DNA of 64,000 bases from Parcubacteria group bacterium M6-OD1-1 (GTDB lineage Bacteria; Patescibacteriota; Minisyncoccia; GWC2-36-17; M10-OD1-4). Below, one piece after another: positions 4,000 to 53,676 of the stretch. Position 1 is the first letter of the stretch; each line of letters starts with the position of its first letter. The stretch lies in assembly GCA_003056085.1 (NCBI GenBank), contig LSNK01000005.1, positions 10,122 to 74,121 of the forward strand, given 5' to 3'. A program made the position numbers and the translations under genes. Below the pieces are notes generated by a model that searched no databases, was not told the DNA's origin, and saw nothing but the letters and a program-made list of their open reading frames with translations.

Positions 4000-4011
4000 C
4001 AAGATAAGCTT

Positions 4012-7752: not shown

Positions 7753-8340
7753 TTATTTTTTCTTTTGTATAATTTTGTCAATTATACCGTAAGTTTTTGC
7801 TTCTTGAGCAGACATATAGTAATCTCTGTCTGCGTCTTTTTCTACTTTTTTATACTGTTGTCCTGTATGTTCTACCAAAATTTTATTTATTTTATCTTTT
7901 GTTTTTAAAATATGCTTTGCAGTTATCTCTATGTCTGTTGCTTGTCCCTCAACTCCTCCCATAACCTGATGAATCATAACTTCTGAATTTGGCAAAGCAA
8001 ACCTTTTTCCTTTTTCACCTGAAGCCAGAAGCACCGCCCCCATTGAAGCCGCTATCCCAACACACATTGTAGATACATCACTTTTTAAGTACTGTATGGT
8101 GTCGTAAATTGCAAGACCCGATGTGACAGAACCGCCTGGAGAATTAATATAAAGCTGAATATCTTTACCGGAATCTTGAGAATCCAAAAACAAAAGCTGA
8201 GCAATAACCGTATTTGCCAAAGCATCGTCAATAGTGTCTCCTAAAAATATTATTCTATCCTTTAAAAGCCTGGAGTATATATCATACGCCCTTTCTCCAT
8301 AATTTGTTTTTTCTATTACCGTCGGTATTAAATAACTCAT
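7753..8340 (-). CDS. clpP: ATP-dependent Clp protease proteolytic subunit
   Basis: Ser-His-Asp triad context ([19 protein letters not shown]), 195 aa. Confidence 0.95.
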
Positions 8341-8439
8341 TTTATTAACTTATTAGAAATTAGCTTTTTAACCTGTTAGTCAATTTATATTACCACTCGC
8401 ACCAATCATTTAACAAGTTATAAAAAAATTAATACTCTG

Positions 8440-13202: not shown

Positions 13203-13309
13203 AAGTCATAAGCAGCAAACTATAAAATTTAAGTTATTTAATACTTTTTGATAAACTATTAATTATTTTACCAATTTCTATAGCTTTATTAGTTAGTTCT
13301 TCACTCTTT

Positions 13310-13345
13310 CTTGTTCAGATATAAATTAATTTATATCTGAACAAG
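13310..13345. repeat. perfect 36-nt palindrome between the yraN and cca ends
   Basis: cttgttcagatataaatt | aatttatatctgaacaag. Confidence 0.45.
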
Positions 13346-13530
13346 AAATCCTGCTTTAATTCTTTTAAGAGAAGTGCTCGCCATAACTAAAAAATCTTTT
13401 CTATTTCTTGAATCTTGCGCTTACTATTTCCCTATCATGCTCTCTGTCATAGAAATAAACGCCTTACAACTCATGATTTTAAGCTTACAAATAACACCTG
13501 CGTAATACCCGAAACACTTTTTTTTTAAAA

Positions 13531-25581: not shown

Positions 25582-25630
25582 AAAAAAATCACTACTTATT
25601 GCGCGACCGCGCAATAAGTAGTGATTTTTT
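25582..25630. terminator. perfect palindromic bidirectional terminator at the right border of the island
   Basis: aaaaaatcactacttattgcgcg-acc-cgcgcaataagtagtgatttttt. Confidence 0.6.
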
Positions 25631-38330: not shown

Positions 38331-39311
38331 ATGACGAATATAAAAAATAAAGTTTCAAACCAAAAACGGAATGTAATCATTCCTATTGTTTTAATATTGG
38401 GAGTATTTATCGGCGGGGTTGTGGTTTTACAAACAAAAGGCATAGGAGCAAAAGTCTTAAAAGAAGGCAAAAAAATATTTATACCGGTAGCGGAAGAGCC
38501 TGACGCAGACCCTGACAACGATGGACTAAAAAATTGGGAAGAAGAAGTATACAAAACCGATTCCAGAAAATATGACACGGATGGCGATGGCTATTCCGAT
38601 GGAGAAGAAGTTTTATCCGGATACGACCCTACAAAACCGGCACCAAATGACGCACTTGAAGGCACGGATACATCTATCCCCAGACCAACACCTAAAAATT
38701 TAACAGATTATTTATCGCAACTGATAGTTTCAAAAGTAGAGTCGGGTGAGTTTAAGCCAATTTCCAACGCTGACACGGCGCCTGATTCTGTCTTGCTTAA
38801 TAATGAAGATATATTTAATGAAGTTTTAACCAATATATCAGAAAAAGCAAAAACAGAATTTATCTTGTCAGAAATACCGGACTCTGAAATAAAAATATCA
38901 AAAAACCCAACAACAAAACAAGAAGTAGTGGCTTATATCACTAAAATGTCTGCCGTTTTGGATGATGATAAAATCTTTTCAGATACAGGGCTTTCAGAAG
39001 CTAAGATAATAGAAGACGCTGTAAACACAAAAGACACCAGAGATATCGAAAAAATTATTAATTTTTACCAAGTAGGAATTGAAAAAATAAAAAAAATAAC
39101 TGTTCCTTTGGACTTTGTAGATATACACAAAGAACAAATAGCTATTTTTGAATTCACAAAAGAAATATTAATTGCAATAAAAAACTTTGAAAATGACCCC
39201 GCAATGGCGGCGGCGGCGGCAGAAAGATACCCTGAATTAAAAAACATGCTGGAAAGTTTTACAAATAAACTTATTGATAGATTAGAAAAATATTCAGATG
39301 ATAAAATTTGA
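38331..39311 (+). CDS. membrane-anchored secreted protein with thrombospondin-type-3-like Ca-binding repeats
   Basis: N-terminal TM anchor, DADPDNDGLKNWEE and DTDGDGYSDGEE (DxDxDG) repeats. Confidence 0.5.
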   Translation: MTNIKNKVSNQKRNVIIPIVLILGVFIGGVVVLQTKGIGAKVLKEGKKIFIPVAEEPDADPDNDGLKNWEEEVYKTDSRKYDTDGDGYSDGEEVLSGYDPTKPAPNDALEGTDTSIPRPTPKNLTDYLSQLIVSKVESGEFKPISNADTAPDSVLLNNEDIFNEVLTNISEKAKTEFILSEIPDSEIKISKNPTTKQEVVAYITKMSAVLDDDKIFSDTGLSEAKIIEDAVNTKDTRDIEKIINFYQVGIEKIKKITVPLDFVDIHKEQIAIFEFTKEILIAIKNFENDPAMAAAAAERYPELKNMLESFTNKLIDRLEKYSDDKI

Positions 39312-42300
39312 GAAAATATTTAAGCCAATATCGTCGTTTTTAATTGCGGTGCTTATCGTAAACTCTTTTTTGTTTGTTATTCTTGCCAATCCAAATCCAG
39401 CACAGGCACAAATGGTAGTTACTGATCCGGGAAATACAGCTGCAAGCGTCTCACAAACCGCAAAACAGACTGCTTGGGAAGCCATAAAACAAGCATGGGA
39501 TAAAAGTGAGGGTGTATTAACTGGAGCATACAGAGCAACCACTGAAGCATTTAACCAATGGGATAAATCAACAGCTATACTTGCAAGAGTCTCTTACGCT
39601 CTTATGTATGTAACTATAAATGTCATGCTGACTAAAATGACCAAGGATATCGTTGGTTGGTTAGATGGCGGGGCGAAAGGCTCTCCAAAAATAACTACAG
39701 ATTTCGGACAGCTTTTTGAAGATTCTCTTGACTTGGCAGCCGGAGCGGTGATTGGAGATATATTAGGTCTGAGAAATGGCGAACTTTGTAATCCCGGTTT
39801 TTTAAAAGGCTTTGTTGTTCTTTCTTTAGACAGAGTTCAGCAGCCGACGTTTAGAGAAAGAATACGGTGTTCATTTTCTGATATAGGGGAAAGTTTGGAT
39901 GATTTTAAAAAAGATTTCTCCAAAGGAGGTTGGGGAGGATGGATAAGATATTCAAGAAGAGCTAATAACCAGATTGGCAATCTTATTGAAACCCAAAATG
40001 AATTAAGAGAAAGACAAATTGCAAGCGTCAAAGCAACTGAAGAAGAATCAAAAACAGGAAGAGGATTCAGCGCACAAAAAGTTTGTAGAGTAACCAGGGA
40101 TATTAATTTTGTTGATGAAACTGGAGCATTCAGCGGCGAAGCGGAAACTTTTAAAGTTGGTGATGCAGACGTCGCCGGAACACTTTCTCTCGGTTCAAAA
40201 ATGAAAGATATAATGGGAAATTACAACTACACTAACTTGGAAGACTTTAAAATATTTTGGAATAATCGCGGCGGATCATTTAAGTGCAAGATAGAAACTC
40301 CTGCAAGCGCGATATCAGAACTTGGCTCAAAAATATTGAATGCTCCTTTCGACACATTAAATAAACAACTTCAAGCGTCAGCTGAAAATTTAGGAAAAAG
40401 TGCTCCTGCAATCTTTAGACCATACCTAAATGCAATATCAGCATCAGCGTTAAATTTATTAATCAGAAAAGAAAAAGGACTTGTTTCAGGAGTATTCGGA
40501 CAAAGAAAATCAAGAAAATATAGAAGGGCAAACACCAGTGCTTTCCAAAAATACTCAAAAACGCTTTATTCAAGTCGTAACCTACTCGGCTCTGCAAACT
40601 CTTTAAGAGACTCTCTTTTAAGAACGCTTTTAAACTTCAGTCTTTTTGCCGGGACACTTACAACTTTAACAGAAAAAAAGGGGGTGCTTTGGAAACCCCC
40701 TATATTAGTTAGTAATTTACAGCATGGCGGACTTATTTGGGGCGCAGGATTTGGAGGAGGAAGGACAGACAACAGAAATATTTGGATGGGTCAGGGCGAT
40801 CCGGGGGATCCGAATGACATAAGCTATCCTGAAGACCCCTCCAGAATAGACACAAGAATATTTGATCAAAGGATAAAAGACAGAGTAAAATCTGTTGTGG
40901 AAAATAAATCTGCAGAAGGATATCCTCTTCTCCCTCCTGCGGGAACCATCAACACATCTGCAAATATTTGCGGGGCTTTTTCACAAGAATTGGAAGTAGA
41001 TGGACAAGATCTTAATTTTACACTTTCAGAGAGAATAGGATATGTAGCACTCGCAGGAGTTTATATTGATGGAGGACTTGATGAAGATGGAGACCCAACA
41101 ACACAAACGACAGCAGCCATAGGAAGCATATACACCTCTACTCCTTCTCTTCTTACCGGTAAAAACGGCTGGTTCGGAGATGTTAGAGTTTCAGCATACA
41201 ACGACAGCGGAAGAACAAGAGAAGCAGGAGCAGGATTTGAACCTTGGCCTGACAGATATGTCAGAGAAAATATTTCTACAGGGGAAGTCGTTACTTTTAT
41301 AGACATGGGAGATTTTCAAAATGGATTTATAGAAGTTGGAGTTCCACCAACATATACAGACCCAGAAACCAGAGCAACCGACCCTCAGATATACGCTTCT
41401 GAGCTTGGTGATATTTCTATTATTCCAAACAGTGATGGTTCTGCGACGGCATTAGAGTCTCAAAATGAAAGAGTTTATTCAAGGAACGCAAACACAGGAG
41501 AACCCGATAACACCTCAGGAAATGTTTATTATATAACAGGAAGCAGAGGAGTATACCAAGAAATAACCCGAGGAAGCGCATTTACTTTACCACCTCTTTC
41601 AAGAGTTTGTGTAGATGATAGACCTGCTTTATATTATACAAGAACAGGTGATGTTGGATCTGTTTTCGCAACAGGAGTTGGTCCGTTTCCAACTGGCAAT
41701 ACTGGTGGTGGATGGCAATGTGGCGGGTCTACATATGGTGTAAAAATAGCTGATATTTTTTGGGACAGAATATCCACCAACCCAACCCTATCAGCTTCTG
41801 TAAATTTCGATGGATGTGGACGTGGAGATATATTAAATATAAGTTTTGATAGAAATACTGCTGTGGGAAGCATTGCTAATAGCGACAATGGCACCCTCGT
41901 TTATGGAAATAGAATATGCACAGCACCAGGTGCACAATCAGTTAGAATAAGTAGTTCGCTCATTATATTACCTGACGACCCAATGGTGGGAATCCCGGCT
42001 AATGTAGCAAATTCTAAATATCAAATAAAATATTTCAGTCCTTCATTTGAAGGAGCAACGACTATAATAGAAAACAACAGAACAATCATTGTTTATGACG
42101 ATTTTAGAGATCCTGCAACAAATTTTCCTACAACAATGATAAGCGCAACCACAACGATTGATAATATTAATCCGTACAAGATGCGGCTCGTGGACTTTTA
42201 TAGAGAAATAAATGAGTTAACAAATGAATTTCTTACAAAAATAAGAGTAATGATTGGCTATCCTGAAAAATCAGGAGATCCCGTAGGACAGACAAAAAAA

Positions 42301-44394
42301 ACTAATCTTTCAGGACTTGCAGATCAAATAGGATCTACGCCTGATGATGATCCTTATTATATTTCCGTGGCCGATGTTTTATCAAAATACAATAATCTAT
42401 CTGCACTTTATCAAGCGTTGTTTGCCGGAGTTACAAGCGAATCGGCCCTTGAAGGAATTGACCCTGACTTTGAAATTCTTAATAGCACAGAAACAAATAT
42501 AAAATTTGCATTAATAGGTGAAAGATGTCCTACAGTCCCTCCTTCCGTTGACTCAAACCCAGCACTGCAAACAGGATGTCAAGCGTTGCCTTCCGGTGAA
42601 TACAATATGGCAAAAAGATTTATTTTTGAAGAAAATCCACAGACAGGATTTGCCACAAATCCATTTACCGGAACAAACAGCAATGTTATTGCCGGAGTTT
42701 TAAACTTAAATGAAATGACCAGACAGCTTGCAACGCTTCCACCTGACAAAAACATAATAAAACTAATAAGACTCAGACAAATATTGGAACAACTTCAAGT
42801 AAGCCCTCAAGCTATAACGTTTTATGGTGAAACTCGAGCAGATGATGTTACATTTAGTCCGGACGACCCATTAAATCCAATTCATTCATTAACCGCCACA
42901 TCAACAACAGGAAACATACTAACCTCAGACTCTATACAAATAAGCCTGCGAAATTATCCCGAAATAGAAGCTTTCCTAAATGACATACAAACAGCAAATA
43001 AACCAATATCTGACCTTATAGAGGCTTATGGATTTTTACCAACAAATACAAGAGAGTCTTATCCTCAAATAAGTGGAGACCTTGAGGATATATTTCCTGA
43101 AATAACAACACAAATTCAAGACAAATTAAGAGATGTGTTTTTAAAAAGAGTTGAACTTGAACTTGCAAAAGCGGAGAAAAAAGCGATAAAAAGAGTAGAG
43201 GATTTTATATATTTTGCAAGAGATTTAAATCCTACAGTACAAATCCAAGTTCCTAAGAACTTTCAAAATATTGTATCCGGAGGAGTTGACATGAAGATGG
43301 GAGATGTAGAAAGCTTAATAATGAGAATAATATCCTCACGCGCAGCAGACCCTCCTTTAAACTTAACTCCTTCTGAAAACTGCATAGGACTGACTGGTGA
43401 ATGGCTTGATTGCGCGTCTCCTGAATATTATTTAAGAGGATTTAGAATTAATCTCTGGGATAATATCTCAGCTGAAGGCACCGGCTCGTTGGCATTGGAA
43501 ACTGGAAACACAACAGAAAACAGCGATCAACGAATGAAAGTAATAGCTGTGAGAAAGGCCTTAATGGCAGGAATAAGAAAAAAAATAAAGATATTTAACA
43601 AATTTATGGGTGTTAATATAAACTCTACTGAATTTGAAAATAAAATAAATTATTATCAATTAGATGTTAATACAGACACACATACAATGGGGCAAGATGG
43701 TCATGATGGAACAAAGCCCCACATACACATAACCGAAGACTACCCTCAAATTGATATTAACGGTGATGGGGACATGACTGATCCGGGAGAATACAAAGAT
43801 GGCTGGGATAGAAAAATAGAAAAAGGATTAGAAGATGTATACATTTATTACACGGGTTTTTATAATTTAGAAAAACTCGGTGTTAATAACCCTGGAACAA
43901 GATTAAGTACAGGAGAATATATTTACAACGACATTAAAACATCAATGAATAAAATGACGAAAGATTTAACCTTGCTTCAAAAAGAATTTGAAAAAATAAA
44001 AGATGAATTTACAGTTGTCGGATCTTCCAATGTATTTTCCTTAAAAGACCAATTAAACGATATGACTAAAAATTTAAAAGTTATGGAAAGCTCTCGGGAT
44101 GAAGCCTTGGCTTGTGTTGATGCGAGCGTCAGTATAGGAAGTGATAATTTTCTTGCAATATTGGTTGGAGCAGCTGGAGGAGCTGGAACTGCAATAGCAT
44201 ATACAATAAATTCAGTCATAGGAAAATTTACGGGAATGGCTTCGGCGTTCACTTTTAGTCTTTTTGGAGGAGGAAGGGCAAGAAGAGCAGCTGAAGCAAG
44301 AGCAAGAAACATAGCCAATAAATGCGGGGATGCGGCAACAAGATACAATAAAGCGTTAACAGATATTTCAGATAACTTTATCTGCGGACGTTAG
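39298..44394 (+). CDS. giant (1698 aa) exported surface protein with C-terminal Gly-rich hydrophobic anchor
   Basis: N-terminal signal/TM (SSFLIAVLIVNSFLFVILANPNPAQAQ), about 1600 aa of Gly/Thr/Asn-rich extracellular sequence, C-terminal AILVGAAGGAGTAIAYTINSVIG hydrophobic segment. Overlaps the upstream gene by 14 nt. Confidence 0.55.
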   Translation: MIKFEKIFKPISSFLIAVLIVNSFLFVILANPNPAQAQMVVTDPGNTAASVSQTAKQTAWEAIKQAWDKSEGVLTGAYRATTEAFNQWDKSTAILARVSYALMYVTINVMLTKMTKDIVGWLDGGAKGSPKITTDFGQLFEDSLDLAAGAVIGDILGLRNGELCNPGFLKGFVVLSLDRVQQPTFRERIRCSFSDIGESLDDFKKDFSKGGWGGWIRYSRRANNQIGNLIETQNELRERQIASVKATEEESKTGRGFSAQKVCRVTRDINFVDETGAFSGEAETFKVGDADVAGTLSLGSKMKDIMGNYNYTNLEDFKIFWNNRGGSFKCKIETPASAISELGSKILNAPFDTLNKQLQASAENLGKSAPAIFRPYLNAISASALNLLIRKEKGLVSGVFGQRKSRKYRRANTSAFQKYSKTLYSSRNLLGSANSLRDSLLRTLLNFSLFAGTLTTLTEKKGVLWKPPILVSNLQHGGLIWGAGFGGGRTDNRNIWMGQGDPGDPNDISYPEDPSRIDTRIFDQRIKDRVKSVVENKSAEGYPLLPPAGTINTSANICGAFSQELEVDGQDLNFTLSERIGYVALAGVYIDGGLDEDGDPTTQTTAAIGSIYTSTPSLLTGKNGWFGDVRVSAYNDSGRTREAGAGFEPWPDRYVRENISTGEVVTFIDMGDFQNGFIEVGVPPTYTDPETRATDPQIYASELGDISIIPNSDGSATALESQNERVYSRNANTGEPDNTSGNVYYITGSRGVYQEITRGSAFTLPPLSRVCVDDRPALYYTRTGDVGSVFATGVGPFPTGNTGGGWQCGGSTYGVKIADIFWDRISTNPTLSASVNFDGCGRGDILNISFDRNTAVGSIANSDNGTLVYGNRICTAPGAQSVRISSSLIILPDDPMVGIPANVANSKYQIKYFSPSFEGATTIIENNRTIIVYDDFRDPATNFPTTMISATTTIDNINPYKMRLVDFYREINELTNEFLTKIRVMIGYPEKSGDPVGQTKKTNLSGLADQIGSTPDDDPYYISVADVLSKYNNLSALYQALFAGVTSESALEGIDPDFEILNSTETNIKFALIGERCPTVPPSVDSNPALQTGCQALPSGEYNMAKRFIFEENPQTGFATNPFTGTNSNVIAGVLNLNEMTRQLATLPPDKNIIKLIRLRQILEQLQVSPQAITFYGETRADDVTFSPDDPLNPIHSLTATSTTGNILTSDSIQISLRNYPEIEAFLNDIQTANKPISDLIEAYGFLPTNTRESYPQISGDLEDIFPEITTQIQDKLRDVFLKRVELELAKAEKKAIKRVEDFIYFARDLNPTVQIQVPKNFQNIVSGGVDMKMGDVESLIMRIISSRAADPPLNLTPSENCIGLTGEWLDCASPEYYLRGFRINLWDNISAEGTGSLALETGNTTENSDQRMKVIAVRKALMAGIRKKIKIFNKFMGVNINSTEFENKINYYQLDVNTDTHTMGQDGHDGTKPHIHITEDYPQIDINGDGDMTDPGEYKDGWDRKIEKGLEDVYIYYTGFYNLEKLGVNNPGTRLSTGEYIYNDIKTSMNKMTKDLTLLQKEFEKIKDEFTVVGSSNVFSLKDQLNDMTKNLKVMESSRDEALACVDASVSIGSDNFLAILVGAAGGAGTAIAYTINSVIGKFTGMASAFTFSLFGGGRARRAAEARARNIANKCGDAATRYNKALTDISDNFICGR

Positions 44395-44489
44395 TTGATG
44401 GGTTGCAAACATTAGATTGTAGGTGATAGGCAATAGATGATAAAAATTATCCGCTATTTAACCCAAACAATAATTTAAAAAACCATAAA

Positions 44490-46478
44490 ATGAAGTTTTT
44501 AAACTTAAAATTCATCATTTCTTTCCTGCTTGTTTTTGTAGTGATTTTTATTAGTAAAACTTCTTTTGTGCATGCCGATGCGATAGATGAGCTTGTAATA
44601 AACCCTGCGAACAGCCTTTTGGAGCTTATTTTAAAAGGCCTCAGTTGGATGTTGGCATTTTTAGGAACGCTTGTTGATGATGTTATGCAGCCGCAATCAA
44701 TTCTTCAAGCCGATATAGTAAAAACAGGATGGAGAATAACTCGAGATTTTGCAAATATGTTCTTTATTTTAATACTCCTTGCTATTGCTTTAAGCTTTAT
44801 ATTATTCCCGCGCTTTCAAATAAAACAAGCTTTGCCAAGACTTCTCTTAATTGCCTTACTTATCAATTTTAGCTTGCCAATCGCAGGAATATTTATAGAT
44901 TTTGCCAATATATTTACTAAATATTTTTTGGATCAAGCAGCTACCGGAGGAAACATAAGTGAGCTCATTGCAAGCCAACTGAATATTACGGCTATTCGTG
45001 ATGTGTCAGAACAAGCATTAACTGCAAATATCGGCAATACTCCGGGTCAAATATTTTTATCATTGCTTTTTGGCATCGTTTTTGTATCCGTAGTTATTTT
45101 TATATTTATCGCATTAGCTTTTATGTTTTTAATAAGAAATATCTATCTTTATATACTTCTTATTATTTTGCCGCTTGCGCTTGTGGCGTCTATTCTTCCT
45201 TCGGGAAGAAGCTATTTTTCGCAATGGTCTCATAAATTTTTTCAGTGGACATTTTTTGCGCCAATCGCAACATTTTTCATCTTTTTATCTATGGTTTCAT
45301 TTAGCAGTATTATAAAAGCTGACGCAGCACCCCTTGCTACAGACGCAGGTGTAGGCTTTCTTGCAGGAACATATGATTACATAATAATACTTCTACTCTT
45401 AATGGGTTCTTTGTTTGCCGCAAACTCATTAGGAGTTCAAACTGCCGGAGTAACTAACAAAATGATGAAATATGGAGGAAAAGCCCTGCGTGGAGGCTGG
45501 TCCGGCGTTAAAAAGGTTAATCATGGAATACAATATTCAAGAGAGAGATTTGGCAAACCAGCGTCACAAAAAGCAAGAGAAACATCTGCTGAATATTCTG
45601 CAAAAGGCGGCTTAATAAACACTCTTATAGGCAAATATCATGACACGAGAGCCGACAAATTAGAAGCACATATACCTGATGGAGTCTTGTCAAAAGAAGA
45701 AAAAGAAAAAGCAAAGCGGCAAGCAAAAGAAAACCCAGACCAACTATTAGGAAGAATAAAACTACCTGGACTAAGCGCAAGGAAGAAAACAGAACTGCAA
45801 ACGATAGCTGCCGAGGAAGGAATATTAAAAGAAAAAGATGCAAGAGGTATCGTTGATCCGAAAAAAACAAAGAAGATGCTTGGAGATGTGTATGAAAAAG
45901 CTTTAAAAATAGGAAATAAAGAACTTGTGGAGGCTATAAGTAAAAATTCTCCGGCACTTGTTTTAGAAAAACTTGAAGAAAAAATTGATGGAATGAATTC
46001 ATTAGAACTCCAGAAAAAATACGGAGTAAATACTAAAGAAAAAGCTAAGAAGGCCGTTAGAAATAATCTATTCAGAAAAATTAATACTGACGATATAACT
46101 AAAATGTGGGATACGCTTGACAAATCTTCACGAACAGAGTTAGTAGCCAATAAAGTTGCCAGCGGAATGTCTATAGATCAAGTTAAAAAAATTCATGATT
46201 CCGGAATGGCTCCTGAATTTTCTAAAGAATTTGAAAAACTTGCAACCGGACAATACAGAAGGCAAAGAAAAGATTTACATGATGTATTTGAAGAAAATAC
46301 TTCCATAATTCGGTCATTTCAGAGTGCTCCTGCAAAGGCAATGTTTGGAGAAGAAGGCTTAACCGAGAGACGAACAACAACACAAGCTGCATGGAACCAG
46401 AGAAAAGAAAAGAAGGAAGGGGAAGGAAAAGCAAAAAAAGAAGAAAAAGAAAGAAAAGCGGAAGAAACGATGATATAG
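44490..46478 (+). CDS. polytopic membrane protein, VirB6/TrbL/PrgH-like candidate, with charged C-terminal domain
   Basis: At least 7 predicted TM helices in the first 330 aa, then a hydrophilic Lys/Glu-rich cytoplasmic tail of about 330 aa. This is VirB6-family architecture. Confidence 0.5.
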   Translation: MKFLNLKFIISFLLVFVVIFISKTSFVHADAIDELVINPANSLLELILKGLSWMLAFLGTLVDDVMQPQSILQADIVKTGWRITRDFANMFFILILLAIALSFILFPRFQIKQALPRLLLIALLINFSLPIAGIFIDFANIFTKYFLDQAATGGNISELIASQLNITAIRDVSEQALTANIGNTPGQIFLSLLFGIVFVSVVIFIFIALAFMFLIRNIYLYILLIILPLALVASILPSGRSYFSQWSHKFFQWTFFAPIATFFIFLSMVSFSSIIKADAAPLATDAGVGFLAGTYDYIIILLLLMGSLFAANSLGVQTAGVTNKMMKYGGKALRGGWSGVKKVNHGIQYSRERFGKPASQKARETSAEYSAKGGLINTLIGKYHDTRADKLEAHIPDGVLSKEEKEKAKRQAKENPDQLLGRIKLPGLSARKKTELQTIAAEEGILKEKDARGIVDPKKTKKMLGDVYEKALKIGNKELVEAISKNSPALVLEKLEEKIDGMNSLELQKKYGVNTKEKAKKAVRNNLFRKINTDDITKMWDTLDKSSRTELVANKVASGMSIDQVKKIHDSGMAPEFSKEFEKLATGQYRRQRKDLHDVFEENTSIIRSFQSAPAKAMFGEEGLTERRTTTQAAWNQRKEKKEGEGKAKKEEKERKAEETMI

Positions 46479-46506
46479 ATGTAAATTAAAACATCAAATT
46501 ACAAAA

Positions 46507-47385
46507 ATGCAAAAAATACCACAAGAGCAAGCTAAAAAAAGATATTTTTCTCTTTCAGACTCACTGCAAAATGCAATGTTTTCAGAGAAAAGTTCTGATG
46601 CTGTCAGAAAAACAGCGATTTTTGGTAATATTGAAAATAAAGTTTCCAGACTCGCAGAACTTACTGGATACGTTTTGCTTGGATATTTAAATCCTATAGA
46701 TTTTTCCAAAGAAATTCAGGAAGAATTTAACATTTCAAGAGAAACAGCAGAACAAATAGCGAGTCAACTTGATGCTGAGATTTTTAGCCTTGTAGACTCT
46801 GATTTAAGAAAGTTGTATCCACCGAGAATAAAAACTCCGACTGCAATATCGGGCGGGTTTATTCCCGATCAAAACAAACCATCAGATAACTCAAACGAAC
46901 GAACCCCAGAAAAAAAATTCAGTGAATTTGAAAAAAGATTTTTAAAAGACAAAACAGCCTCTTCTGAACCCACACCTAAAAAAAATCACTTGGAGACTCG
47001 GTCTACAAATGATTGGAAGCCTGGTCTTCAAACGAGAAAAGAAATGCAGGCAGGAGAAAAACCAATTCAAGCTCCATCTTTTAAAAATGCTCCGAGAAAT
47101 CAAAAACCCTTAGAAAACGAAGCACCTAAAAGCACCTCCTACGCTCCTATTGGAGCCTCTGGAGGAAAACCCAAACCTATTGAGAACGCAGAAGATATTC
47201 CGGAAATAAAACCTGTTATTCCTTTGCCAACATTTATGCAGTCGCAATTTCAGCCAAGAAAAAAACTTGATGAAAGCGACTACAAAGAAAATATTCCCGC
47301 TCCCGTTAAAAAATCAGAAGACGAAGAAGATAAAAAACCACAGCCGAAAATAGAAGGAAATATAATTGATCTTCGCGATCTTTAA
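46507..47385 (+). CDS. hypothetical protein with Pro/Lys-rich low-complexity C-terminus
   Basis: 292 aa with no TM. The disordered C-terminus may be a linker or peptidoglycan-spanning segment. Confidence 0.4.
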   Translation: MQKIPQEQAKKRYFSLSDSLQNAMFSEKSSDAVRKTAIFGNIENKVSRLAELTGYVLLGYLNPIDFSKEIQEEFNISRETAEQIASQLDAEIFSLVDSDLRKLYPPRIKTPTAISGGFIPDQNKPSDNSNERTPEKKFSEFEKRFLKDKTASSEPTPKKNHLETRSTNDWKPGLQTRKEMQAGEKPIQAPSFKNAPRNQKPLENEAPKSTSYAPIGASGGKPKPIENAEDIPEIKPVIPLPTFMQSQFQPRKKLDESDYKENIPAPVKKSEDEEDKKPQPKIEGNIIDLRDL

Positions 47386-47443
47386 TTAGATTATGAAGGA
47401 TAGATTACAAATTACTATCACCTAAAAACCCTAAACTAAGAAA

Positions 47444-47893
47444 ATGAAACAATTTCAAGTTCCACAATTTATTGATGTAGAGGATAAAATATTAGGCTTT
47501 GTCACCATGAGGCAATTTTTTATAATGCTTATACCTCTTACTGTTGCCGGAGTCTTATATTTTATTTTGGATATATGGCTTATGCTGATAATAACACTGC
47601 CGGTAACCGGAATCGCTGTTGTATTTGCTTTTTATAAACCAAATGGTATGAAATTTTCAAGATTTCTCGGTTCCTTTCTAAGCTACACATTCAAGCCAAG
47701 ATTATATGTATGGAAAAGAGAAGAAAAAACAACATCAGTGGAAATATTAAGAGAAGGGGAAGAAAAACTAAAAAACCCCAGAGGATTAAAAAGTAAAAAA
47801 GGAAGCATTGAAACTGGAAGTAAAGTAAACGAGGAAGAATTAAAAAAACAAGGAGGAGAAAGTGAATATTTAGATGAAATACTTAATGAATGA
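47444..47893 (+). CDS. PrgI/TcpE-family (VirB3-like) small two-TM T4SS protein
   Basis: QVPQFIDVEDKILGFVTMRQFFIM followed by two TM helices. This matches the PrgI family that precedes VirB4 in Gram-positive-type T4SS. Confidence 0.6.
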   Translation: MKQFQVPQFIDVEDKILGFVTMRQFFIMLIPLTVAGVLYFILDIWLMLIITLPVTGIAVVFAFYKPNGMKFSRFLGSFLSYTFKPRLYVWKREEKTTSVEILREGEEKLKNPRGLKSKKGSIETGSKVNEEELKKQGGESEYLDEILNE

Positions 47894-47903
47894 GCTTATT
47901 AGG

Positions 47904-47979
47904 AATTAGCTTCTTAGCTTTTTAGGAAAAACCCTGAAAAACTAAGAAGTCAAAAAGCTAAAAAGCTAAAAAAATGGCT
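47904..47979 (+). repeat. 76-bp element copy 1 (A/T-rich, AGCT-containing imperfect palindrome), ending in ATGGCT start of the VirB4 N-domain ORF
   Basis: aattagcttcttagctttttaggaaaaaccctgaaaaactaagaagtcaaaaagctaaaaagctaaaaaaATGGCT. Identical apart from 1 nt to 48626-48701. Confidence 0.85.
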
Positions 47980-48612
47980 CAACCAAACGCACAAGCAACA
48001 CAACAAATAGTAGACATAGAAGCTATTAGAGAAAGTGTAATAATCCTAAAAACAGGAGCATTACGTGCTATTTTGATGTGTTCATCTGTTAACTTAGCTT
48101 TAAAATCACAAGATGAACAAGACGCATTGATATTCCAATATCAAAATTTTATAAATGGATTAGATTTTCCGATAGAATTTGTTGTACATTCAAGAAAATT
48201 AGACATAACAGACTATATAGCAGAAATAAAAGGACATTTGGCCAAGCAAAAAAACGAACTTTTAAAGATTCAAACTGAAGAATACGTAGAATTTATTGAA
48301 AGCTTTGTCGGCATGCAAAATATTATGGCAAAAACATTTTATGTTACAATACCTTTTTCATCAGAAGAAGACACTAAACAAGGATTTTTAGATAAAATAT
48401 TCTCACCAAAAACATCATCATTTGTTAAAATGTCAGATGAAGAATTTAAAAAATACAAAAACCAACTTTGGCAAAGAGTAGAAAATGTTATATCCGGACT
48501 ACAAAGTGTCGGGGTAAGGTCAGAAGCGCTTGATAACGAAGAATTAAAAGAATTATTTTTCAATATTTATAATCCTGGAGAAACAGGGAAAGGCGTTGTT
48601 CAAAAACTTTAA
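47974..48612 (+). CDS. VirB4/TrbE-family ATPase, detached N-terminal domain (212 aa)
   Basis: IVDIEAIRESVIILKTGALRAILMCSSVNLALKSQDEQDALIFQYQNFINGLDFPIEFVVHSRKLDITDYI matches the conserved N-terminal region of Gram-positive VirB4 homologues (PrgJ/TcpF/ConE type). Confidence 0.6.
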   Translation: MAQPNAQATQQIVDIEAIRESVIILKTGALRAILMCSSVNLALKSQDEQDALIFQYQNFINGLDFPIEFVVHSRKLDITDYIAEIKGHLAKQKNELLKIQTEEYVEFIESFVGMQNIMAKTFYVTIPFSSEEDTKQGFLDKIFSPKTSSFVKMSDEEFKKYKNQLWQRVENVISGLQSVGVRSEALDNEELKELFFNIYNPGETGKGVVQKL

Positions 48613-48625
48613 TCAGCTTCTTAGA

Positions 48626-48701
48626 AATTAGCTTCTTAGCTTTTTAGGAAAAACCCTGAAAAACTAAGAAGTCAAAAAGCTAAAAAGCTAAAAAATTGGC
48701 T
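48626..48701 (+). repeat. 76-bp element copy 2, ending in TTGGCT start of the VirB4 ATPase ORF
   Basis: Direct repeat of 47904-47979, with ATG changed to TTG. Confidence 0.85.
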
Positions 48702-50477
48702 TTAGATCAGAAAAAACAAGAAAATATAAGCGTTCCTCAGATGTCAGAACCTGCGGGTTTTAAAGATGTGGTTGCACCCTCTGCTATTCAAATAGAAAGC
48801 CGTTATATTCAGTTGGGGGATAAATTCTTGCGTACTCTATTTTTATATTCATATCCAAGATATTTAAATACAAATTGGTTTGCTCCTGTAATAAATTTGG
48901 ATAGATTTTTTGATATTGCGATACACTTTCATCCGGTTGATACCGCAACTATAATGAAAAAATTAAACAGGAAAGTAACATCCATTGAGGCTCAATTAAA
49001 CGAAAGAACGGAGAAGGGGCTTATTCGTGACCCGATACTTGAAACTGCACTTCATGATTTGGAAGACTTAAGAGACTCTCTGCAGCAAGCAACTCAAAAA
49101 CTTTTTAGAGTAGGAGTTTATATAACAATTATAGAAAATAGCGTTGAAGAGCTAAATAAGGCGGAAAGTGAAATAAGGGGAATATTGGACGCAAGAATGG
49201 TACTGACTAAAAATGCAAATTTTCAGCAAGATATAGGATTTATGTCTACTTTACCATTAGGCAGAGATAAGCTTGAAATTCACTCAAACTTAAACACAGG
49301 ACCTGCTTCTACTCTTTTCCCCTTTGTGTCTGCCGACCTTACCTCAAATAAAGGAATTTTATATGGAATAAACAGACACAACAACAGTCTTATTCTTTTT
49401 GACAGATTTTCTCTTGAAAACGCAAACTCTGTTATTTTTGCAAAATCAGGCTCAGGAAAAAGTTACACTGCAAAACTTGAAATATTGAGGTCTTTAATGA
49501 CAGGAACGGATGTCATTATTATAGATCCTGAAAATGAATATAAGTATCTTACCGAAACAGTGGGGGGTTCATTTTTTAGAGTTTCTTTAAATTCACAAAA
49601 TCATATAAATCCATTTGAGCTTCCAAGGCCCATTGATGGAGAATCGCAAGCCGATGTTTTAAGGTCAAATATTATAAATCTTGTTGGAATGATGCGCCTC
49701 ATGCTTGGAGAACTAAATCCGGAAGAAGATGCGATTATAGATAGAGCGCTTGCAGAAACTTATGCCTCAAGAGACATAACACCTGATGTTGATTTTTCAG
49801 ACAAAACACCTCCGACACTTTCTGACTTTCAGTCTATTTTAGAAAATATGGAAGGAGGAAATTCTCTTGCAAAAAGACTTGAAAAATACACAAAAGGCTC
49901 ATATGCAGGATTTTTAAATAATCAGACAAATGTAGATATGCAAAACAAACTGATTGTTTTCTCAATAAGAGACATGGAGACAGAACTGAGGCCTATCGCT
50001 ATGTATCTTATTATTAGATATGTCTGGAATATTGTTAGAGCTGAACTTAAAAAGAGAATTCTTTTGGTTGATGAAGCATGGGTCATGATGCAACATGAGG
50101 ACGCAGCTTCATTTTTATACGGAATAGCAAAAAGATGCAGAAAATACTACTTGGGACTTACCACAATAACCCAAGATGTAAATGACTTTTTAGGCTCCAA
50201 GTACGGGAAGGCAATTTTGACGAATTCATCACTTCAACTTCTTCTGAAGCAATCTCCGGCAACAATAAACACGGTTAAAGAATCTTTTAATCTTTCTGAG
50301 GAAGAAAAATACCTTCTTTTGGAGTGCGGAGTTGGAGAAGGCATCTTTTTTGCAGGACTAAAACATGCCGCCATTAAAGTTATTGCATCTTACACCGAAG
50401 ACCAAATAATAACATCAAATCCTGAAGAAATACTTGCAAGAGAAAAAGAACAAGCCGACCTTGAGAACACCGAATAA
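48696..50477 (+). CDS. VirB4/TrbE-family T4SS ATPase, middle and C-terminal ATPase domains (593 aa)
   Basis: Walker A GSGKSYTAKLE, Walker B LLVDEAWVMM, VirB4 middle-domain pattern (YIQLGDKFLRTLFLYSYPRYLNTNWFAPVINLD). TTG start inside repeat copy 2. With the 212-aa ORF it totals 805 aa, the typical VirB4 length. Confidence 0.8.
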   Translation: MALDQKKQENISVPQMSEPAGFKDVVAPSAIQIESRYIQLGDKFLRTLFLYSYPRYLNTNWFAPVINLDRFFDIAIHFHPVDTATIMKKLNRKVTSIEAQLNERTEKGLIRDPILETALHDLEDLRDSLQQATQKLFRVGVYITIIENSVEELNKAESEIRGILDARMVLTKNANFQQDIGFMSTLPLGRDKLEIHSNLNTGPASTLFPFVSADLTSNKGILYGINRHNNSLILFDRFSLENANSVIFAKSGSGKSYTAKLEILRSLMTGTDVIIIDPENEYKYLTETVGGSFFRVSLNSQNHINPFELPRPIDGESQADVLRSNIINLVGMMRLMLGELNPEEDAIIDRALAETYASRDITPDVDFSDKTPPTLSDFQSILENMEGGNSLAKRLEKYTKGSYAGFLNNQTNVDMQNKLIVFSIRDMETELRPIAMYLIIRYVWNIVRAELKKRILLVDEAWVMMQHEDAASFLYGIAKRCRKYYLGLTTITQDVNDFLGSKYGKAILTNSSLQLLLKQSPATINTVKESFNLSEEEKYLLLECGVGEGIFFAGLKHAAIKVIASYTEDQIITSNPEEILAREKEQADLENTE

Positions 50478-50555
50478 TAAATGGTACAATATAATTAGAA
50501 TATAGAATCTTGAATTTAGAATATAATTTTTATAACTCTAAATTTTAAATGCCAA

Positions 50556-51581
50556 ATGCTGCTAAAAACAATAAAAGTATTTTTAATAACCTCGTTTGTC
50601 GGCTACTCATTTATACTTGCCGGTTATTTTGCTTTTGCTCAACAAAATCTAAACTCCGACTTTTCAAATCAAATAACAAACTTAGAAAATGAATTGTTAG
50701 CCCCGAGCGTTGAACTTGATTTATCATCGAGCGGGAGATTAGGTCAAATAGCTTCAATCTCTGCGTTAACTGACAATATAGATGACAGCACTGTTAGTTT
50801 TCTTTGGTATTTAGATGATGTGTTTGATCAAAAACAATCCGGAAAATCCAAAACAAAGTTTTCCTTCAAAACAACAAGAGCAAATCACGTTGTAAGACTT
50901 GTTATAATGCAAAGAAAAGTCAAAATAACAGAAAATGCTATTTTGGTAAGTTCATATAATGTTTCTTTGGCTTGGAATGCAGAAACTTATGTTCCGCCAG
51001 AATACGAAGGTAAAGCATTACCATCAAGAGGCAGCAAGGTAACCGTAACGGCAATCCCTGACATTAAAGGATATGATTCTAAAGACTTGCTTTATACTTG
51101 GTATCTTGATGCGGAGTCACGTGTAAGAAAAGTTTTAGGAGAAGATGAATTTTCATTTTTTATAACAAAAAGCGTTGATTTTATACCTGTATTTGTTGAA
51201 GTGTCCAATCTTTCTGGCTCTATAGTTGTAAGTCAAGCTGTATCAATCCCTGTTGTCCGGCCATCTGTTTTAATTTATCACCAACTTTCAGACAAAACTG
51301 CAAAAACAGCTGTACGTAAGCTTTTTATCGCTCCGGGAGAGTCCAAAAAAATAACTGCAAAACCCTTTAATTTTCAAGCAAAAAGTATAATTGATTTTGA
51401 ATACGAATGGGAATTTATAGGAAAGAAAGCAAGTGGGGAAAGAAAAAATCCCAACTTACTAACACTCATAATACCTGAAACATCGTCTCTTGGAATAAAA
51501 AATTTAATGTTAAAAGTTATAAATAGAAAATTCATCAAAGAAAGAACTTCGGCTATTTTGGTGGTTAATATAACTAAGTAA
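50556..51581 (+). CDS. hypothetical exported protein, N-terminal TM anchor plus beta-rich domain
   Basis: 341 aa. A VirB8-like role is possible from position but not supported by motifs. Confidence 0.4.
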   Translation: MLLKTIKVFLITSFVGYSFILAGYFAFAQQNLNSDFSNQITNLENELLAPSVELDLSSSGRLGQIASISALTDNIDDSTVSFLWYLDDVFDQKQSGKSKTKFSFKTTRANHVVRLVIMQRKVKITENAILVSSYNVSLAWNAETYVPPEYEGKALPSRGSKVTVTAIPDIKGYDSKDLLYTWYLDAESRVRKVLGEDEFSFFITKSVDFIPVFVEVSNLSGSIVVSQAVSIPVVRPSVLIYHQLSDKTAKTAVRKLFIAPGESKKITAKPFNFQAKSIIDFEYEWEFIGKKASGERKNPNLLTLIIPETSSLGIKNLMLKVINRKFIKERTSAILVVNITK

Positions 51582-51660
51582 TAGTTGCTGGATTATAGTG
51601 GTTAGATTATAAATTTATAAGTTATTAATTAGGAAATAAAGATATTTAATTATTGCATTA

Positions 51661-52536
51661 ATGAAATATAAAATAATTATCTTAATATTGCTTTCTGTAG
51701 TTTTATTCAACGGACTTTTGGACTTTGTTCAAGCACAGACAACTTTTGAAGTGGGTATTCCCGGGCAAACGAGACCCGGAGAACCATTTCCAACCTATAC
51801 GGATACTGAGGGTAGGGAAATAGTAGACATAGAAAGATACATAGCCTTTTTATACATGTTTATGATAGGACTTGTCGGTATTGCCGGTTTTGCCTCTTTG
51901 GTTTGGTATGGTATTGTTTGGATATACTCCGGTATAGCAGAAAAAAAATCAGAAGCAATGGAAGGCATTAAAAATACATTAATAGGCATATCGCTCGCTT
52001 TGGGATCTTTTGTAATATTAAACACCATAAATCCCGCTCTTGTAACATTAACCTCTCCTAAGTTTCCTGAACTCACGGCAAAACCGGCAAATGAGATGCC
52101 GAAAGAAATTGCTGTTAATAACAGAATAGCTGGAAACTATTATTATAAATATAAAGATGACACTTTTCAAAACAGAGTTGTTTACAGATACAGCAAACCA
52201 TTTTCCTCATTAAGTCTTTGTAATAATGCGAGAGATACATTTACTGAAATTTGTGATGTTGATAATGATATTAATTGCGATTCTGACACCCCTGATCCCG
52301 AAGCATTTCCTTGTGAAAGTTATAAAATAGGTGAAAAAAATAATTATTTTTATTGGGCTAAAAATAAAGTTACCAATGAAATTTATGTTAGCTCGGGATT
52401 CACCGATCAAAATAGCTGTGAGAAAACAGCAAATGACTACGGAATAACATCGCTTTACAAAATAGTAAACAAACCGGCAAGCGATGTTAATTGTCAATCT
52501 GGAGAACCACCATCAAATGCAATACCTTTACCCTAA
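51661..52536 (+). CDS. hypothetical exported protein with a hydrophobic helical hairpin and a Cys-rich C-terminal domain
   Basis: Signal peptide. Paired hydrophobic helices separated by AEKKSEA are reminiscent of VirB2-type pilins. C-terminal domain with 8 Cys. Confidence 0.35.
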   Translation: MKYKIIILILLSVVLFNGLLDFVQAQTTFEVGIPGQTRPGEPFPTYTDTEGREIVDIERYIAFLYMFMIGLVGIAGFASLVWYGIVWIYSGIAEKKSEAMEGIKNTLIGISLALGSFVILNTINPALVTLTSPKFPELTAKPANEMPKEIAVNNRIAGNYYYKYKDDTFQNRVVYRYSKPFSSLSLCNNARDTFTEICDVDNDINCDSDTPDPEAFPCESYKIGEKNNYFYWAKNKVTNEIYVSSGFTDQNSCEKTANDYGITSLYKIVNKPASDVNCQSGEPPSNAIPLP

Positions 52537-52548
52537 TAAATTAAAATC

Positions 52549-53676
52549 ATGACAAAAAAAACAAAAATTTCATTATTTGTAATATTAGCAGCTCTTGTCG
52601 TAGGGTCTATTTTAGCTTATTATTTTCTTGCAGAAGGCAGACCTATAAAATTAAAAGAAAAAGGAGAAGTCAAAAAAGAAACTACCGTCATTACTCCAAA
52701 AACTGTTGAAAAATTACTTCAGATAACCGATGAAAACACTGTTTCTCCCATTATTGATGAACAAAAAAATACGATTAAATACATAACAAAAACTGATGGA
52801 TCTCTTTATCAGTCTGATTTAAACGGAGAGAACAAAGTAAAAATACCCTTTGTAAGCTTAGGCGGACTTATAAAAATAATTTGGTCTCCCGATCAGGAAA
52901 AATTTATTAATATTTATTCTGATGCTTTTGGCATTAAAAGGTTCTATTATGACTTAACATCAAAACAAATCGTTCCTTTAAATAAAAGCATCACTTGGGT
53001 TGATTACTCAAAGACAGAAGACAAGATAGCGTATCATTATTATGATGCAACTCAAGATATAAATTCAATCGCAATAGCAAATGCAGATGGATCTCTTGCT
53101 CAAAGCATACTAAATACAAGACTTAAAGATGTTAGATTAAAATGGGTAACAAATGATAAAATTGTGATATCAACAGCACCATCAGGACTTGCACAAAACA
53201 TCTTATATTACACAGATCCAAAAAATCCTAAACTAATAAAAATATTGAGTGGGATTTACGGACTAACATCCAAATGGTCTTCTGACGGATCAAAATTTCT
53301 TTTTTCCCAAACCGACAAAGACGGAGCAAACTTAACGCTTAAATCAGCGGACGGAAATGGTCTTAATATTTTAGACACGAAAATTTCAACACTTCCTGAG
53401 AAGTGCGTATTTTCGGAGGACTTCTTAAACGCGTACTGCGCAGAACCGACAAAAATACCAAAAGACGCAATAATGCCGGATGATTATTATAAAAAAATAT
53501 TTTCTTCAAATGACAAACTTTGGAAAACAAACCTTAAAACAAACAAAAAAGACTTGGTTTATCAATTTGGTGAAAATATAAATTTTGATTTGAGTAATCT
53601 TATACTTACAAAGGATGAAAAATATTTATATTTTATAAATAGAACTAATGGATTTTTATACAAACTGGAACTCTAA
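52549..53676 (+). CDS. membrane-anchored beta-propeller protein (TolB/WD40-like repeats)
   Basis: N-terminal TM. Repeated W-S-x-D-G/SPDG-like blades (IWSPDQEKF, KWSSDGSKF). Confidence 0.45.
   Translation: MTKKTKISLFVILAALVVGSILAYYFLAEGRPIKLKEKGEVKKETTVITPKTVEKLLQITDENTVSPIIDEQKNTIKYITKTDGSLYQSDLNGENKVKIPFVSLGGLIKIIWSPDQEKFINIYSDAFGIKRFYYDLTSKQIVPLNKSITWVDYSKTEDKIAYHYYDATQDINSIAIANADGSLAQSILNTRLKDVRLKWVTNDKIVISTAPSGLAQNILYYTDPKNPKLIKILSGIYGLTSKWSSDGSKFLFSQTDKDGANLTLKSADGNGLNILDTKISTLPEKCVFSEDFLNAYCAEPTKIPKDAIMPDDYYKKIFSSNDKLWKTNLKTNKKDLVYQFGENINFDLSNLILTKDEKYLYFINRTNGFLYKLEL

Follow-up and report, generated by a model that had tools for sequence, protein, structure and literature searches.

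The VirB4-like ATPase TrsE is the partner of TrsD on the staphylococcal plasmid pGO1 (pGO1 subclass, MPF-FATA), where a small TrsD is followed by the VirB4-like ATPase. In other systems the corresponding modules are fused—this is the case in the CD1110-type and Mycoplasma ICE Mbov_0397-type proteins and in R388 TrwK, a single-chain VirB4. The closest described arrangement is that of the Patescibacteria T4SS, in which a standalone homologue of the VirB4 N-terminus lies beside virB4, PrgI/VirB3, VirB6-like (TrbL_3), and pilin-like genes are found nearby, and the locus is chromosomal, near dnaA, rnpA, and ksgA (Quinonero-Coronel et al. 2025, Microb Genom, PMC12102498). According to that paper, no T4SS component is more abundant in Patescibacteria than the TrsD homologues, which are associated with virB4 in 1,664 of 2,272 cases; trsD is essential in Ca. 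Southlakia epibionticum ML1, and the function of TrsD is left unassigned, its homology to the VirB4 N-terminus being given as remote. A two-piece VirB4 (TrsD plus VirB4) in Patescibacteria has thus already been published; the paper makes no apparent mention of intergenic palindromic elements and does not term the pair a 'split VirB4'.

Here we describe a locus of this kind in the window, by which we mean the whole 64-kb stretch of DNA that was analyzed. Three of its genes concern us:

47444..47893, + strand: prgI, VirB3-like, 149 aa (Pfam PrgI, E 9e-11)
47974..48612, + strand: TrsD-like gene (ORF212), 212 aa, ATG start; a free-standing gene homologous to the VirB4 N-terminal domain
48696..50477, + strand: virB4 gene (ORF593), 593 aa, TTG start; middle domain and P-loop ATPase

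Both ORFs of the first-pass annotation were borne out at these coordinates; the TTG at 48696 is the earliest possible start of ORF593 after the in-frame TAA at 48681-48683, although another annotation begins the protein at the ATG of codon 16 (P0121, 578 aa). Between the two ORFs lie a stop codon and 83 nt of spacer. PrgI lies directly upstream of ORF212, which provides ORF593 with a VirB3-like neighbour; a weak T4SS_pilin match lies downstream (Pfam scan), an orthologue in the related locus L001 is annotated as TrbL_3 (VirB6-like), and the operon is chromosomal, near rnpA-yidC-dnaA. The locus is an ordinary chromosomal T4SS operon, its host a Parcubacteria/Azambacteria-like patescibacterium, and it is an instance of the published system with no essential difference. 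The window therefore adds little to T4SS biology, being another example of a TrsD and VirB4 pair that is already documented.

Compared with pGO1, the likeness lies in the gene order and in the alignment of ORF212 along the whole NCBIfam TrsD/TraD profile (NF041427, positions 12-200 of 201, E 3e-7). In contrast, the pGO1 genes are plasmid-borne whereas these are chromosomal, and ORF212 is only remotely related to TrsD, since it scores only 30.4 bits where NCBIfam sets its cut-off at 200. The precomputed tables give PF26593 (TraC-like) for the exact ORF212 protein and for all listed homologues; this family is absent from our own Pfam scan of ORF212, presumably because our copy of Pfam is without the model. 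A standalone protein of about 200 aa is found immediately upstream of virB4 in all of the 20+ loci examined, and the standalone ORF212 family comprises 3,507 cluster representatives.

At first pass ORF212 had been read as the N-terminal part of VirB4 and ORF593 as its middle and ATPase part, and both profiles and a fused homologue agree with this. ORF593 matches the conju_CD1110 VirB4 profile at positions 185-728 of 752 (E 5e-121; 405 bits against a cut-off of 325), so that the first ~184 VirB4 positions are absent from it; ORF212 matches a CD1110-type VirB4 profile at positions 2-126 and the VirB4_plasma profile at positions 102-242 (E 1e-9). On the Mbov_0397-type VirB3-VirB4 profile, PrgI (23-106), ORF212 (102-242), and ORF593 (293-893) map colinearly. 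The ATPase assignment is given by matches to Pfam P-loop_TraG (E 2.5e-27) and to PDB 4ag5, the VirB4 C-terminal domain (E 6e-47), as well as by the Walker A (KSGSGKS) and Walker B (LLVDEAW) motifs in the translation. In the 797-aa fused homologue P0327, residues 2-210 align to ORF212 and residues 213-797 to ORF593. A sequence search of the PDB with ORF212 returned no relevant match, and a structure model and fold search were used instead; the top structural match was R388 TrwK/VirB4, so that ORF212, as modelled, is structurally similar to the VirB4 N-terminal domain. The N-terminal domain is nevertheless a separate gene rather than being contiguous with the middle domain and ATPase, and the window holds three separate genes where the CD1110-type, Mbov_0397-type, and TrwK proteins have fused modules. 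Colinear mapping and the rare fused homologues mean that TrsD and a short VirB4 together make up one VirB4 equivalent.

The spacers around ORF212 are occupied by a direct repeat, and similar sequence is found at two further sites:

47889..47979, + strand: repeat copy 1, at junction j1 between prgI and ORF212 (nhmmer family profile, E 1e-17)
about 47891-47973, + strand: the element proper in copy 1, with its hairpin at 47909-47950
48611..48701, + strand: repeat copy 2, at junction j2 between ORF212 and ORF593, with its hairpin at 48631-48672; compared with the element-free j2 of relatives
47386..47443, + strand: the j0 spacer before prgI, with a local alignment to copy 2 (AAAAACCCT..AAACTAAGAA)
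8340..8379, + strand: an isolated fragment similar to the left arm of the element and the flank 5' of it (80% identical along 40 nt)

The duplication reported at first pass holds, and the copies end as had been given, in aaaaaaATGGCT for copy 1 and aaaaaaTTGGCT for copy 2; the length does not, for the repeat spans 91 nt (87/91 identical) and not 76. Within it is an identical core of 68 nt (47906-47973 and 48628-48695), and such a match arose in 0 of 100 shuffles. Only two full copies are present in the window, and each takes up the whole of its spacer, from the stop of the preceding gene as far as codon 2 of the following one. At about 84 nt, the element is palindromic and rich in AGCT, with inverted arms of 18 nt (94% complementary; TTAGCTTCTTAGCTTTTT / AAAAAGCTAAAAAGCTAA) built of short TTAGCT/AGCTAA repeats and followed by an A-rich tail. 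Read from the sequences, there are 5-7 AGCT sites per element against the ~0.3 estimated from base composition. Each copy folds to a 9+8-bp hairpin, with z-scores of -4.7 and -3.8 against dinucleotide shuffles; the bare spacers reach a fold z of about -8 against simple shuffles. The j0 spacer aligns to copy 2 with a shuffle p of 0.002 (control spacers were not significant) and has a fold z of about -0.15; it is probably related to the element, though truncated and decayed and with its hairpin gone. In the fragment at 8340..8379, the 18-mer CTTATTAGAAATTAGCTT matches the degenerate consensus of the two copies exactly; the family profile did not recover this fragment (nhmmer).

A repeat of this sort could be an artefact of assembly, either collapsed or mis-joined, and the sources are indeed metagenome-assembled genomes. 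However, both copies are also present in GCA_006243245.1 (L001, the same as L010) and GCA_003056185.1 (L002)—three independent assemblies in total—with strain-level differences in copy 1, and the flanking genes are full-length and colinear with those of relatives. The agreement of the two other assemblies, together with a repeat shorter than the sequencing read, indicates that the repeat is real, and we give an artefact a vanishingly small chance.

The first-pass annotation had further proposed gene fission, in which an originally single virB4 was split at a domain boundary by a small repeat unit supplying an initiation region of its own, start codon and first two codons included. The observations behind it are sound: ORF212 and ORF593 sum to one VirB4, the same element is upstream of both, and fused forms are known, if rare (2 of the best 150 representatives, P0327 at 797 aa and P0378 at 898 aa). 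The relatives nonetheless contradict both parts of the proposal. In every relative examined (ORF212 identity 45-100%), prgI, a ~212-aa ORF, and a ~595-aa ORF follow one another in that order, with a stop codon between the latter two, whose relative frames vary; the comparison of intact with split VirB4 suggested at first pass thus found every locus examined to be split. Most of these relatives are without the element and have the same split, with its own stop and start: L003 has a 5-nt junction and a TAATG stop/start overlap (cttTAATGgct), the spacers in L025-27 are 2 and 2 nt, and those in L007 are 9 and 18 nt. These element-free loci (L003, L007, L025) refute fission by the element. The start, moreover, is not the element's to bring; ATGGC(T/A), and with it TGGCT and the M-A beginning, is native to both genes in element-free relatives. 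The element also lies upstream of ORF212, where no gene is split, and the two-gene arrangement is a published, phylum-wide feature (PMC12102498).

Gene lengths give the same picture. Among the best 120 listed homologues of ORF212, lengths are ~200-230 aa, with the exception of two fragments of ~155 aa and one protein of 292 aa; among the best 120 of ORF593, almost all are 578-622 aa, the exceptions being three truncated and two somewhat longer proteins, and no length approaches 800 aa. Halves of ~212 aa and ~595 aa occur throughout Azambacteria, Portnoybacteria, and Parcubacteria. Because relatives that mostly lack the element carry the same split, the element is not its cause; the comparison shows the split VirB4 to be ancient and clade-wide, with no part played by the element in making it. 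Fission by the repeat is, in our judgement, extremely improbable. Very probably VirB4 is natively two genes here, the element is a later and separate insertion of a selfish or neutral kind, and the two-piece VirB4 is independent of it. A small insertion at a junction may in this way mislead a sequence-only reading towards recent gene fission.

How the second copy came to lie at j2 can be approached through L003, whose element-free j2 reads TAATGGCT. Set against this junction, the j2 insert would be 48613-48696 (84 nt), placed between the TAA and TGGCT of ancestral TAATGGCT, with at most 1 nt of ambiguity (T) as target-site duplication; the insertion replaced only the A of the ancestral ATG by T, giving TTG. 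A TA/AT target-site duplication at stop/start overlaps was considered: it fits L009 j1 and L028 j0 (T(G/A)ATG) and does not fit the j2 of the window. The history that we favour would begin with an older j0 copy, now decayed, and the j1 copy; from the latter a local duplicate would recently have been placed into j2, within the TAATGGCT stop/start overlap, turning ATG into TTG and uncoupling the two cistrons.

That local copy need not have been made by transposition. Template switching at microhomologies, or ectopic gene conversion, may have carried the sequence from j1 to j2, the element itself being possibly immobile; either would account for identity extending into the native flanks (AAT on the left, TGGCT on the right), for the TAATGGCT sequence at the element-free junction, for two copies lying 722 bp apart in the same orientation as the sole full copies in 64 kb, and for the absence of a clean target-site duplication. 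The microhomologies are very short, however, and related elements occur at all three junctions in different genomes, each beginning with TCAGCTT right after the stop codon, so that a mobile element is the simpler explanation. We hold template switching to be possible, though on balance doubtful.

Members of the family are scattered among the relatives. The element is present at both j1 and j2 only in the lineage of the window (the window, L001, and L002), and elsewhere at j1 only in L009, at j2 only in L018, and at j0 only in L028. The copies in L018 and L009 have longer imperfect arms; that in L028 is a clear family member but no longer folds (z +0.6); and the arm repeat period varies among members, being 7 or 8 nt. 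Other relatives have unrelated palindromic inserts at the same junctions. The search for further copies, proposed at first pass, therefore succeeded at the junctions of this operon and not beyond them: a profile search of ~238 kb of this and related genomes found no other full copy, and all copies are in the same orientation. Confinement to this operon is subject to ascertainment bias, because its junctions are the only sites that were surveyed systematically. A search of a genome collection with the 23-nt hairpin core gave a single chance match in a Methanoregula MAG, which is uninformative on copy number (the species representative there may lack the element), and the 18-nt arm gave 74 single-arm matches in viral contigs, among which nhmmer found no full element.

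MITEs, REP/BIME, Correia elements, and Rickettsia palindromic elements are small palindromic intergenic repeats, and the element of the window resembles them in its size (70-110 nt), its inverted arms of ~18-30 nt, its strong hairpin, its non-coding nature, its position just after a stop codon, and its fast divergence and decay. The arms qualify as the terminal inverted repeats of a MITE, and the palindrome and post-stop position are those of REP/BIME. In contrast to such repeats, the element is of very low copy number and so far confined to one operon, its arms are short AGCT-containing tandem units, and we identified for it neither a target-site duplication nor a partner transposase nor a RAYT. 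Dispersed copies of the MITE kind, or the high copy number of REP/BIME, are not seen in the 64 kb, which holds j1, j2, the decayed j0, and the arm-like fragment at 8340-8379; no transposase was noticed in the annotated parts of the window. Searching the literature gave no relevant account of palindromic or MITE-like repeats in CPR/Patescibacteria. The lack of a target-site duplication, transposase, and dispersed copies is unusual for a freely transposing MITE and would be compatible with a locus-specific role or with recombinational copying.

A locus-specific role would make the element a functional intercistronic module—an RNA hairpin with an A-rich leader that serves as a processing or stability site or as a tuner of translation, or else a protein-binding AGCT array—copied between junctions to adjust PrgI, TrsD, and VirB4 output relative to one another. 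The family is known only from j0, j1, and j2 of this operon, in four lineages and one orientation; its hairpin is strong (z about -4 to -8), its AGCT sites are far above the estimate, and its A-rich tail abuts the start codon in a genome whose genes have no Shine-Dalgarno motifs upstream. On the other side, most close relatives are without the element, one older copy is without a hairpin, the arm period is inconsistent among members, in other relatives these junctions are taken up by unrelated palindromes, and the apparent restriction to the operon comes from a junction-only survey. Of the stem, RNAalifold on five family members kept just the outer 5 bp, and it showed neither compensatory pairs nor covariation. 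Within the window, Rfam at gathering thresholds matched only two tRNAs and not the element, permissive searches gave only generic hairpin (miRNA-model) matches below those thresholds, and a promoter/terminator scan found no signal inside the element. An intrinsic terminator was likewise rejected: there is no terminator-like site in 47300-48900, and it is an A-rich tract that follows the hairpin on the coding strand.

We consider a functional module improbable. Its most specific form—a T4SS-operon-specific module that certain Patescibacteria would copy among the prgI/trsD/virB4 junctions, uncoupling translation and resetting the VirB3-like:TrsD-like:VirB4 stoichiometry of an essential machinery without Shine-Dalgarno motifs—is a distinctly improbable proposal. 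Given the lost hairpins, the lack of covariation and of Rfam, promoter, or terminator matches, and the unrelated inserts elsewhere, we take the element to be neutral or selfish and not functional; it would be a non-autonomous palindromic insertion of the MITE/REP kind, persisting only within the few nucleotides between essential genes. Small palindromic insertions are still tolerated in the few bases separating stop from start codons, even in the densely packed essential operons of reduced genomes.

The two genes would probably be expressed from the transcript of the operon, initiation taking place on the A-rich leader. In a comparison of the window with L002, which both carry the element, three codons of ORF212 and four of ORF593 differ, and 7/7 of these differences are synonymous. 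Since all polymorphisms between element-bearing strains are synonymous, ORF212 and ORF593 both appear to remain functional; being intact and, from their conservation, under purifying selection, they are presumably still expressed.

Copy 1 shows an excess of strain differences (4/22; Poisson p 7e-4), and a reading of this excess as selection or gene conversion was abandoned, since variability is raised throughout the prgI-trsD region relative to the remainder. As a separate observation, one strain variant lengthens PrgI by three residues.

The two ORFs described in the first-pass annotation are present as called, and the duplicated element placed before both of them is real and somewhat longer than claimed—91 nt instead of 76. 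The junction features, in window positions, are as follows:

47889-47979: repeat copy 1, at the spacer between prgI and ORF212 (j1)
47893: 3' end of prgI
47909-47950: copy 1 hairpin, 9+8 bp, with a fold far more stable than shuffles
47974-48612: ORF212, the trsD-like gene, 212 aa, ATG start; 3' end at 48612
48611-48701: repeat copy 2, at the spacer between ORF212 and ORF593 (j2)
48631-48672: copy 2 hairpin, 9+8 bp, with a fold far more stable than shuffles
48681-48683: in-frame TAA ahead of the virB4 TTG
48696-50477: ORF593, the virB4 gene, 593 aa, TTG start

ORF593 matches the CD1110-type VirB4 profile over positions 185-728 of 752 (E 5e-121, over the curated cut-off). It also matches P-loop_TraG and, at E 6e-47, 4ag5, a VirB4 C-terminal domain of known structure, and its translation shows both Walker motifs (A, KSGSGKS; B, LLVDEAW). 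It is a VirB4 ATPase without the first ~185 profile positions. ORF212 covers positions 2-126 of the same profile, i.e., the part missing from ORF593, and aligns to the Mycoplasma-ICE VirB4 profile at positions 102-242 (E 1e-9); its match to the TrsD/TraD profile is full length (E 3e-7) but far under the family cut-off. The 149-aa gene ahead of ORF212 encodes PrgI, which is VirB3-like. A profile search over 1.8 billion cluster representatives recovered two fused homologues. In one fused protein (P0327, 797 aa), residues 2-210 align to ORF212 with 40% identity and residues 213-797 align to ORF593 residues 5-587 with 56% identity; a second (P0378, 898 aa) follows the same pattern. These alignments are the most direct evidence for reading ORF212 and ORF593 as one VirB4, and together with the colinear profile matches they show the earlier view of the ORFs as two pieces of one VirB4 to be correct. 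Among the best 150 cluster representatives of this mostly split clade, these two are the only fused TrsD-VirB4 proteins; they could reflect secondary fusion or read-through in annotation.

The split itself had been attributed to gene fission by insertion of the element; however, the same split occurs in every locus retrieved, several of which lack the element. The order prgI, ~212-aa ORF, ~595-aa ORF is kept in all ~25 loci (45-100% identity), always with a stop codon between the latter two, whose relative reading frames vary among relatives. The element is absent from several of the closest relatives, namely L003 (a 5-nt gap, then the stop/start overlap cttTAATGgct), L025-27 (2-nt gaps), and L007 (9-nt and 18-nt gaps). 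Since these relatives share the split, it predates the element by a long way and was not caused by it. Homologue lengths follow the same division: among the best 120 of 282 ORF212 homologues, from Azambacteria, Sungbacteria, and other Patescibacteria and down to 47% identity, lengths are ~200-230 aa except for two ~155-aa fragments and one protein of 292 aa, and the standalone ORF212 family comprises 3,507 cluster representatives. Nearly all of the best 120 ORF593 homologues measure 578-622 aa; three are truncated, two run slightly longer, and no protein in this set approaches 800 aa.

A two-gene VirB4 is already known. Quinonero-Coronel et al. (PMC12102498) found standalone TrsD to be more abundant in Patescibacteria than any other T4SS component. 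They count 2,272 TrsD homologues, 1,664 of them associated with virB4, and report TrsD to be essential in S. epibionticum. The window agrees with the Patescibacteria T4SS genomic context described there. Features in and beside its T4SS region (36832-61431) are:

35708: Fic-domain gene
36832: ksgA
~38331-53676: T4SS cluster, between ksgA and the Wzy_C/yidC/yidD/rnpA/dnaA genes
39298-44394: gene for a 1,698-aa protein without a significant Pfam domain

By synteny with L105, a related locus, the Wzy_C genes, yidC, yidD, rnpA, and dnaA (60058) lie just downstream of the cluster; the cumulative GC-skew minimum falls at ~28-30 kb of the window, not at dnaA.

The two repeat copies are identical at 87 of 91 nt, with an identical 68-nt core, and no window shuffle contained such a match. 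Each copy wholly occupies its spacer, from the upstream gene's stop codon to the next gene's second codon, and TTAGCT/AGCTAA units make up the 18-nt inverted repeat of its outer arms; j1 and j2 hold the only full copies in the 64-kb window. An assembly artefact is ruled out because both copies recur, with a few strain differences, in two other assemblies (GCA_006243245.1 and GCA_003056185.1, loci L001 and L002).

The element had also been credited with carrying its own start and first two codons (M-A). This does not hold: ATGGC(T/A) is the native trsD-like start in L003, L007, L009, and L028 and the native virB4 start in L003, L012, L013, L015, L025, and L030, all six without an element at the virB4 junction, so that TGGCT at the repeat's 3' end is pre-existing gene sequence and not cargo. 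Relative to the L003-type junction TAATGGCT, TAA and TGGCT are separated at j2 by an insert of 84 nt (48613-48696), which parted the A of the old ATG from the rest, so that the first usable virB4 start is TTG. In a different public annotation, the identical virB4 gene begins at an internal ATG (48741, codon 16; 578 aa, P0121). We favour the TTG at 48696 because the 15 residues upstream of codon 16 are conserved in relatives. At 19 gene starts inspected in the window, the preceding 30 nt contained no Shine-Dalgarno-like motif, so its absence from the element is unremarkable; these leaders are A/T-rich, and the element's A-rich tail may serve as one.

Related elements occur at j1 only in L009 (Azambacteria; VirB4 92% identical; TGAtcagcttatagcttttagctt...aagctaaaagctaaacaATG), at j2 only in L018, and before prgI (j0) in L028/L105. 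Pairwise similarities are significant (0 of 2,000 shuffles score as high), and a profile built from these elements finds, in ~238 kb, the window, L009, L018, and L028/L105 copies alone, each of them on the strand of the operon. At j0 in the window itself, the spacer (47386-47443) resembles a decayed, truncated member (p 0.002), and a stretch of 40 nt at 8340-8379 resembles an arm of the element. Copies 1 and 2 differ at only 2-4 of 91 nt, depending on strain, whereas the L009 j1 element has strongly diverged from that of the window; the j2 copy is most likely a recent local duplicate of j1. It could have been made by transposition or, as AAT and TGGCT common to donor and target flanks suggest, by microhomology-mediated template switching; no clean target-site duplication is visible at the insert.

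Folding is lost in the L028 j0 copy and at the window j0, the element shows no covariation, Rfam match, or terminator or promoter signature, and unrelated palindromic inserts occupy the same junctions in L012, L014, L016, L018 (j1), L024, and L030. These observations argue against a conserved RNA function—a locus-specific intercistronic regulator seems to us improbable—and in our reading the element is a small palindromic insertion, non-autonomous and of the MITE/REP kind, which would be tolerated only where a few bases separate essential genes. Our literature search found no description of it; within the scope of these searches it is undescribed, and it is a minor representative of a familiar kind.

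Comparison of the window with L002, both element-bearing, reveals differences at three codons of ORF212 and four of ORF593, and all seven changes are synonymous, which indicates that purifying selection has continued on both halves since the insertions. Copy 1 also varies between strains, at 47892 and 47974: the window has TGA as the prgI stop and ATG as the ORF212 start. L001/L002 have TCA in place of the TGA, so that PrgI is extended by three residues encoded in the element, up to a TAG within it, and their ORF212 start is TTG. Unlike the window, L004 (4656-6446; also L005; VirB4 89% identical) is a genuine example of decay: virB4 falls into pieces of 99 and 489 aa at an in-frame TGA, a codon that reads TTA (Leu) in the window, through pseudogenization, sequencing error, or recoding.

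The unrelated inserts, in other Patescibacteria, measure 86-160 nt (L012 1031-1190, L014 3133-3244, L016 2414-2501, L018 2380-2486, L024 2367-2480, L030 1366-1455), each with arms from its own short repeated motif; the prgI/trsD/virB4 junctions seem to accept palindromic insertions repeatedly. Some of the inserts contain a 23S_rRNA_IVP/bAvd gene bounded by inverted repeats. Genes for four-helix-bundle proteins of the 23S_rRNA_IVP/bAvd type are inserted within or beside the prgI-trsD junction in three relatives:

L014 2069-2486: bounded by long inverted repeats of short tandem units
L004 2739-3095
L030 391-798

Elsewhere in the window, a complete tRNA-Gly(TCC) gene (3848-3920; locus 3735-3999) lies between partial copies of itself: its 5' half recurs exactly over 36 nt at 3735-3770, and ~24 nt of its 3' end recur at ~3972-3999. 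Its immediate flanks pair as an extended stem (3831-3854/3912-3935); this may be an integration/excision scar or a nested or intron-like arrangement. Several perfect or near-perfect palindromes of 21-28 bp with 0-2-nt loops, distinct from the element, occur at 4011-4066, 4416-4465, 13307-13348, and 25583-25630 and may be terminator-like hairpins.
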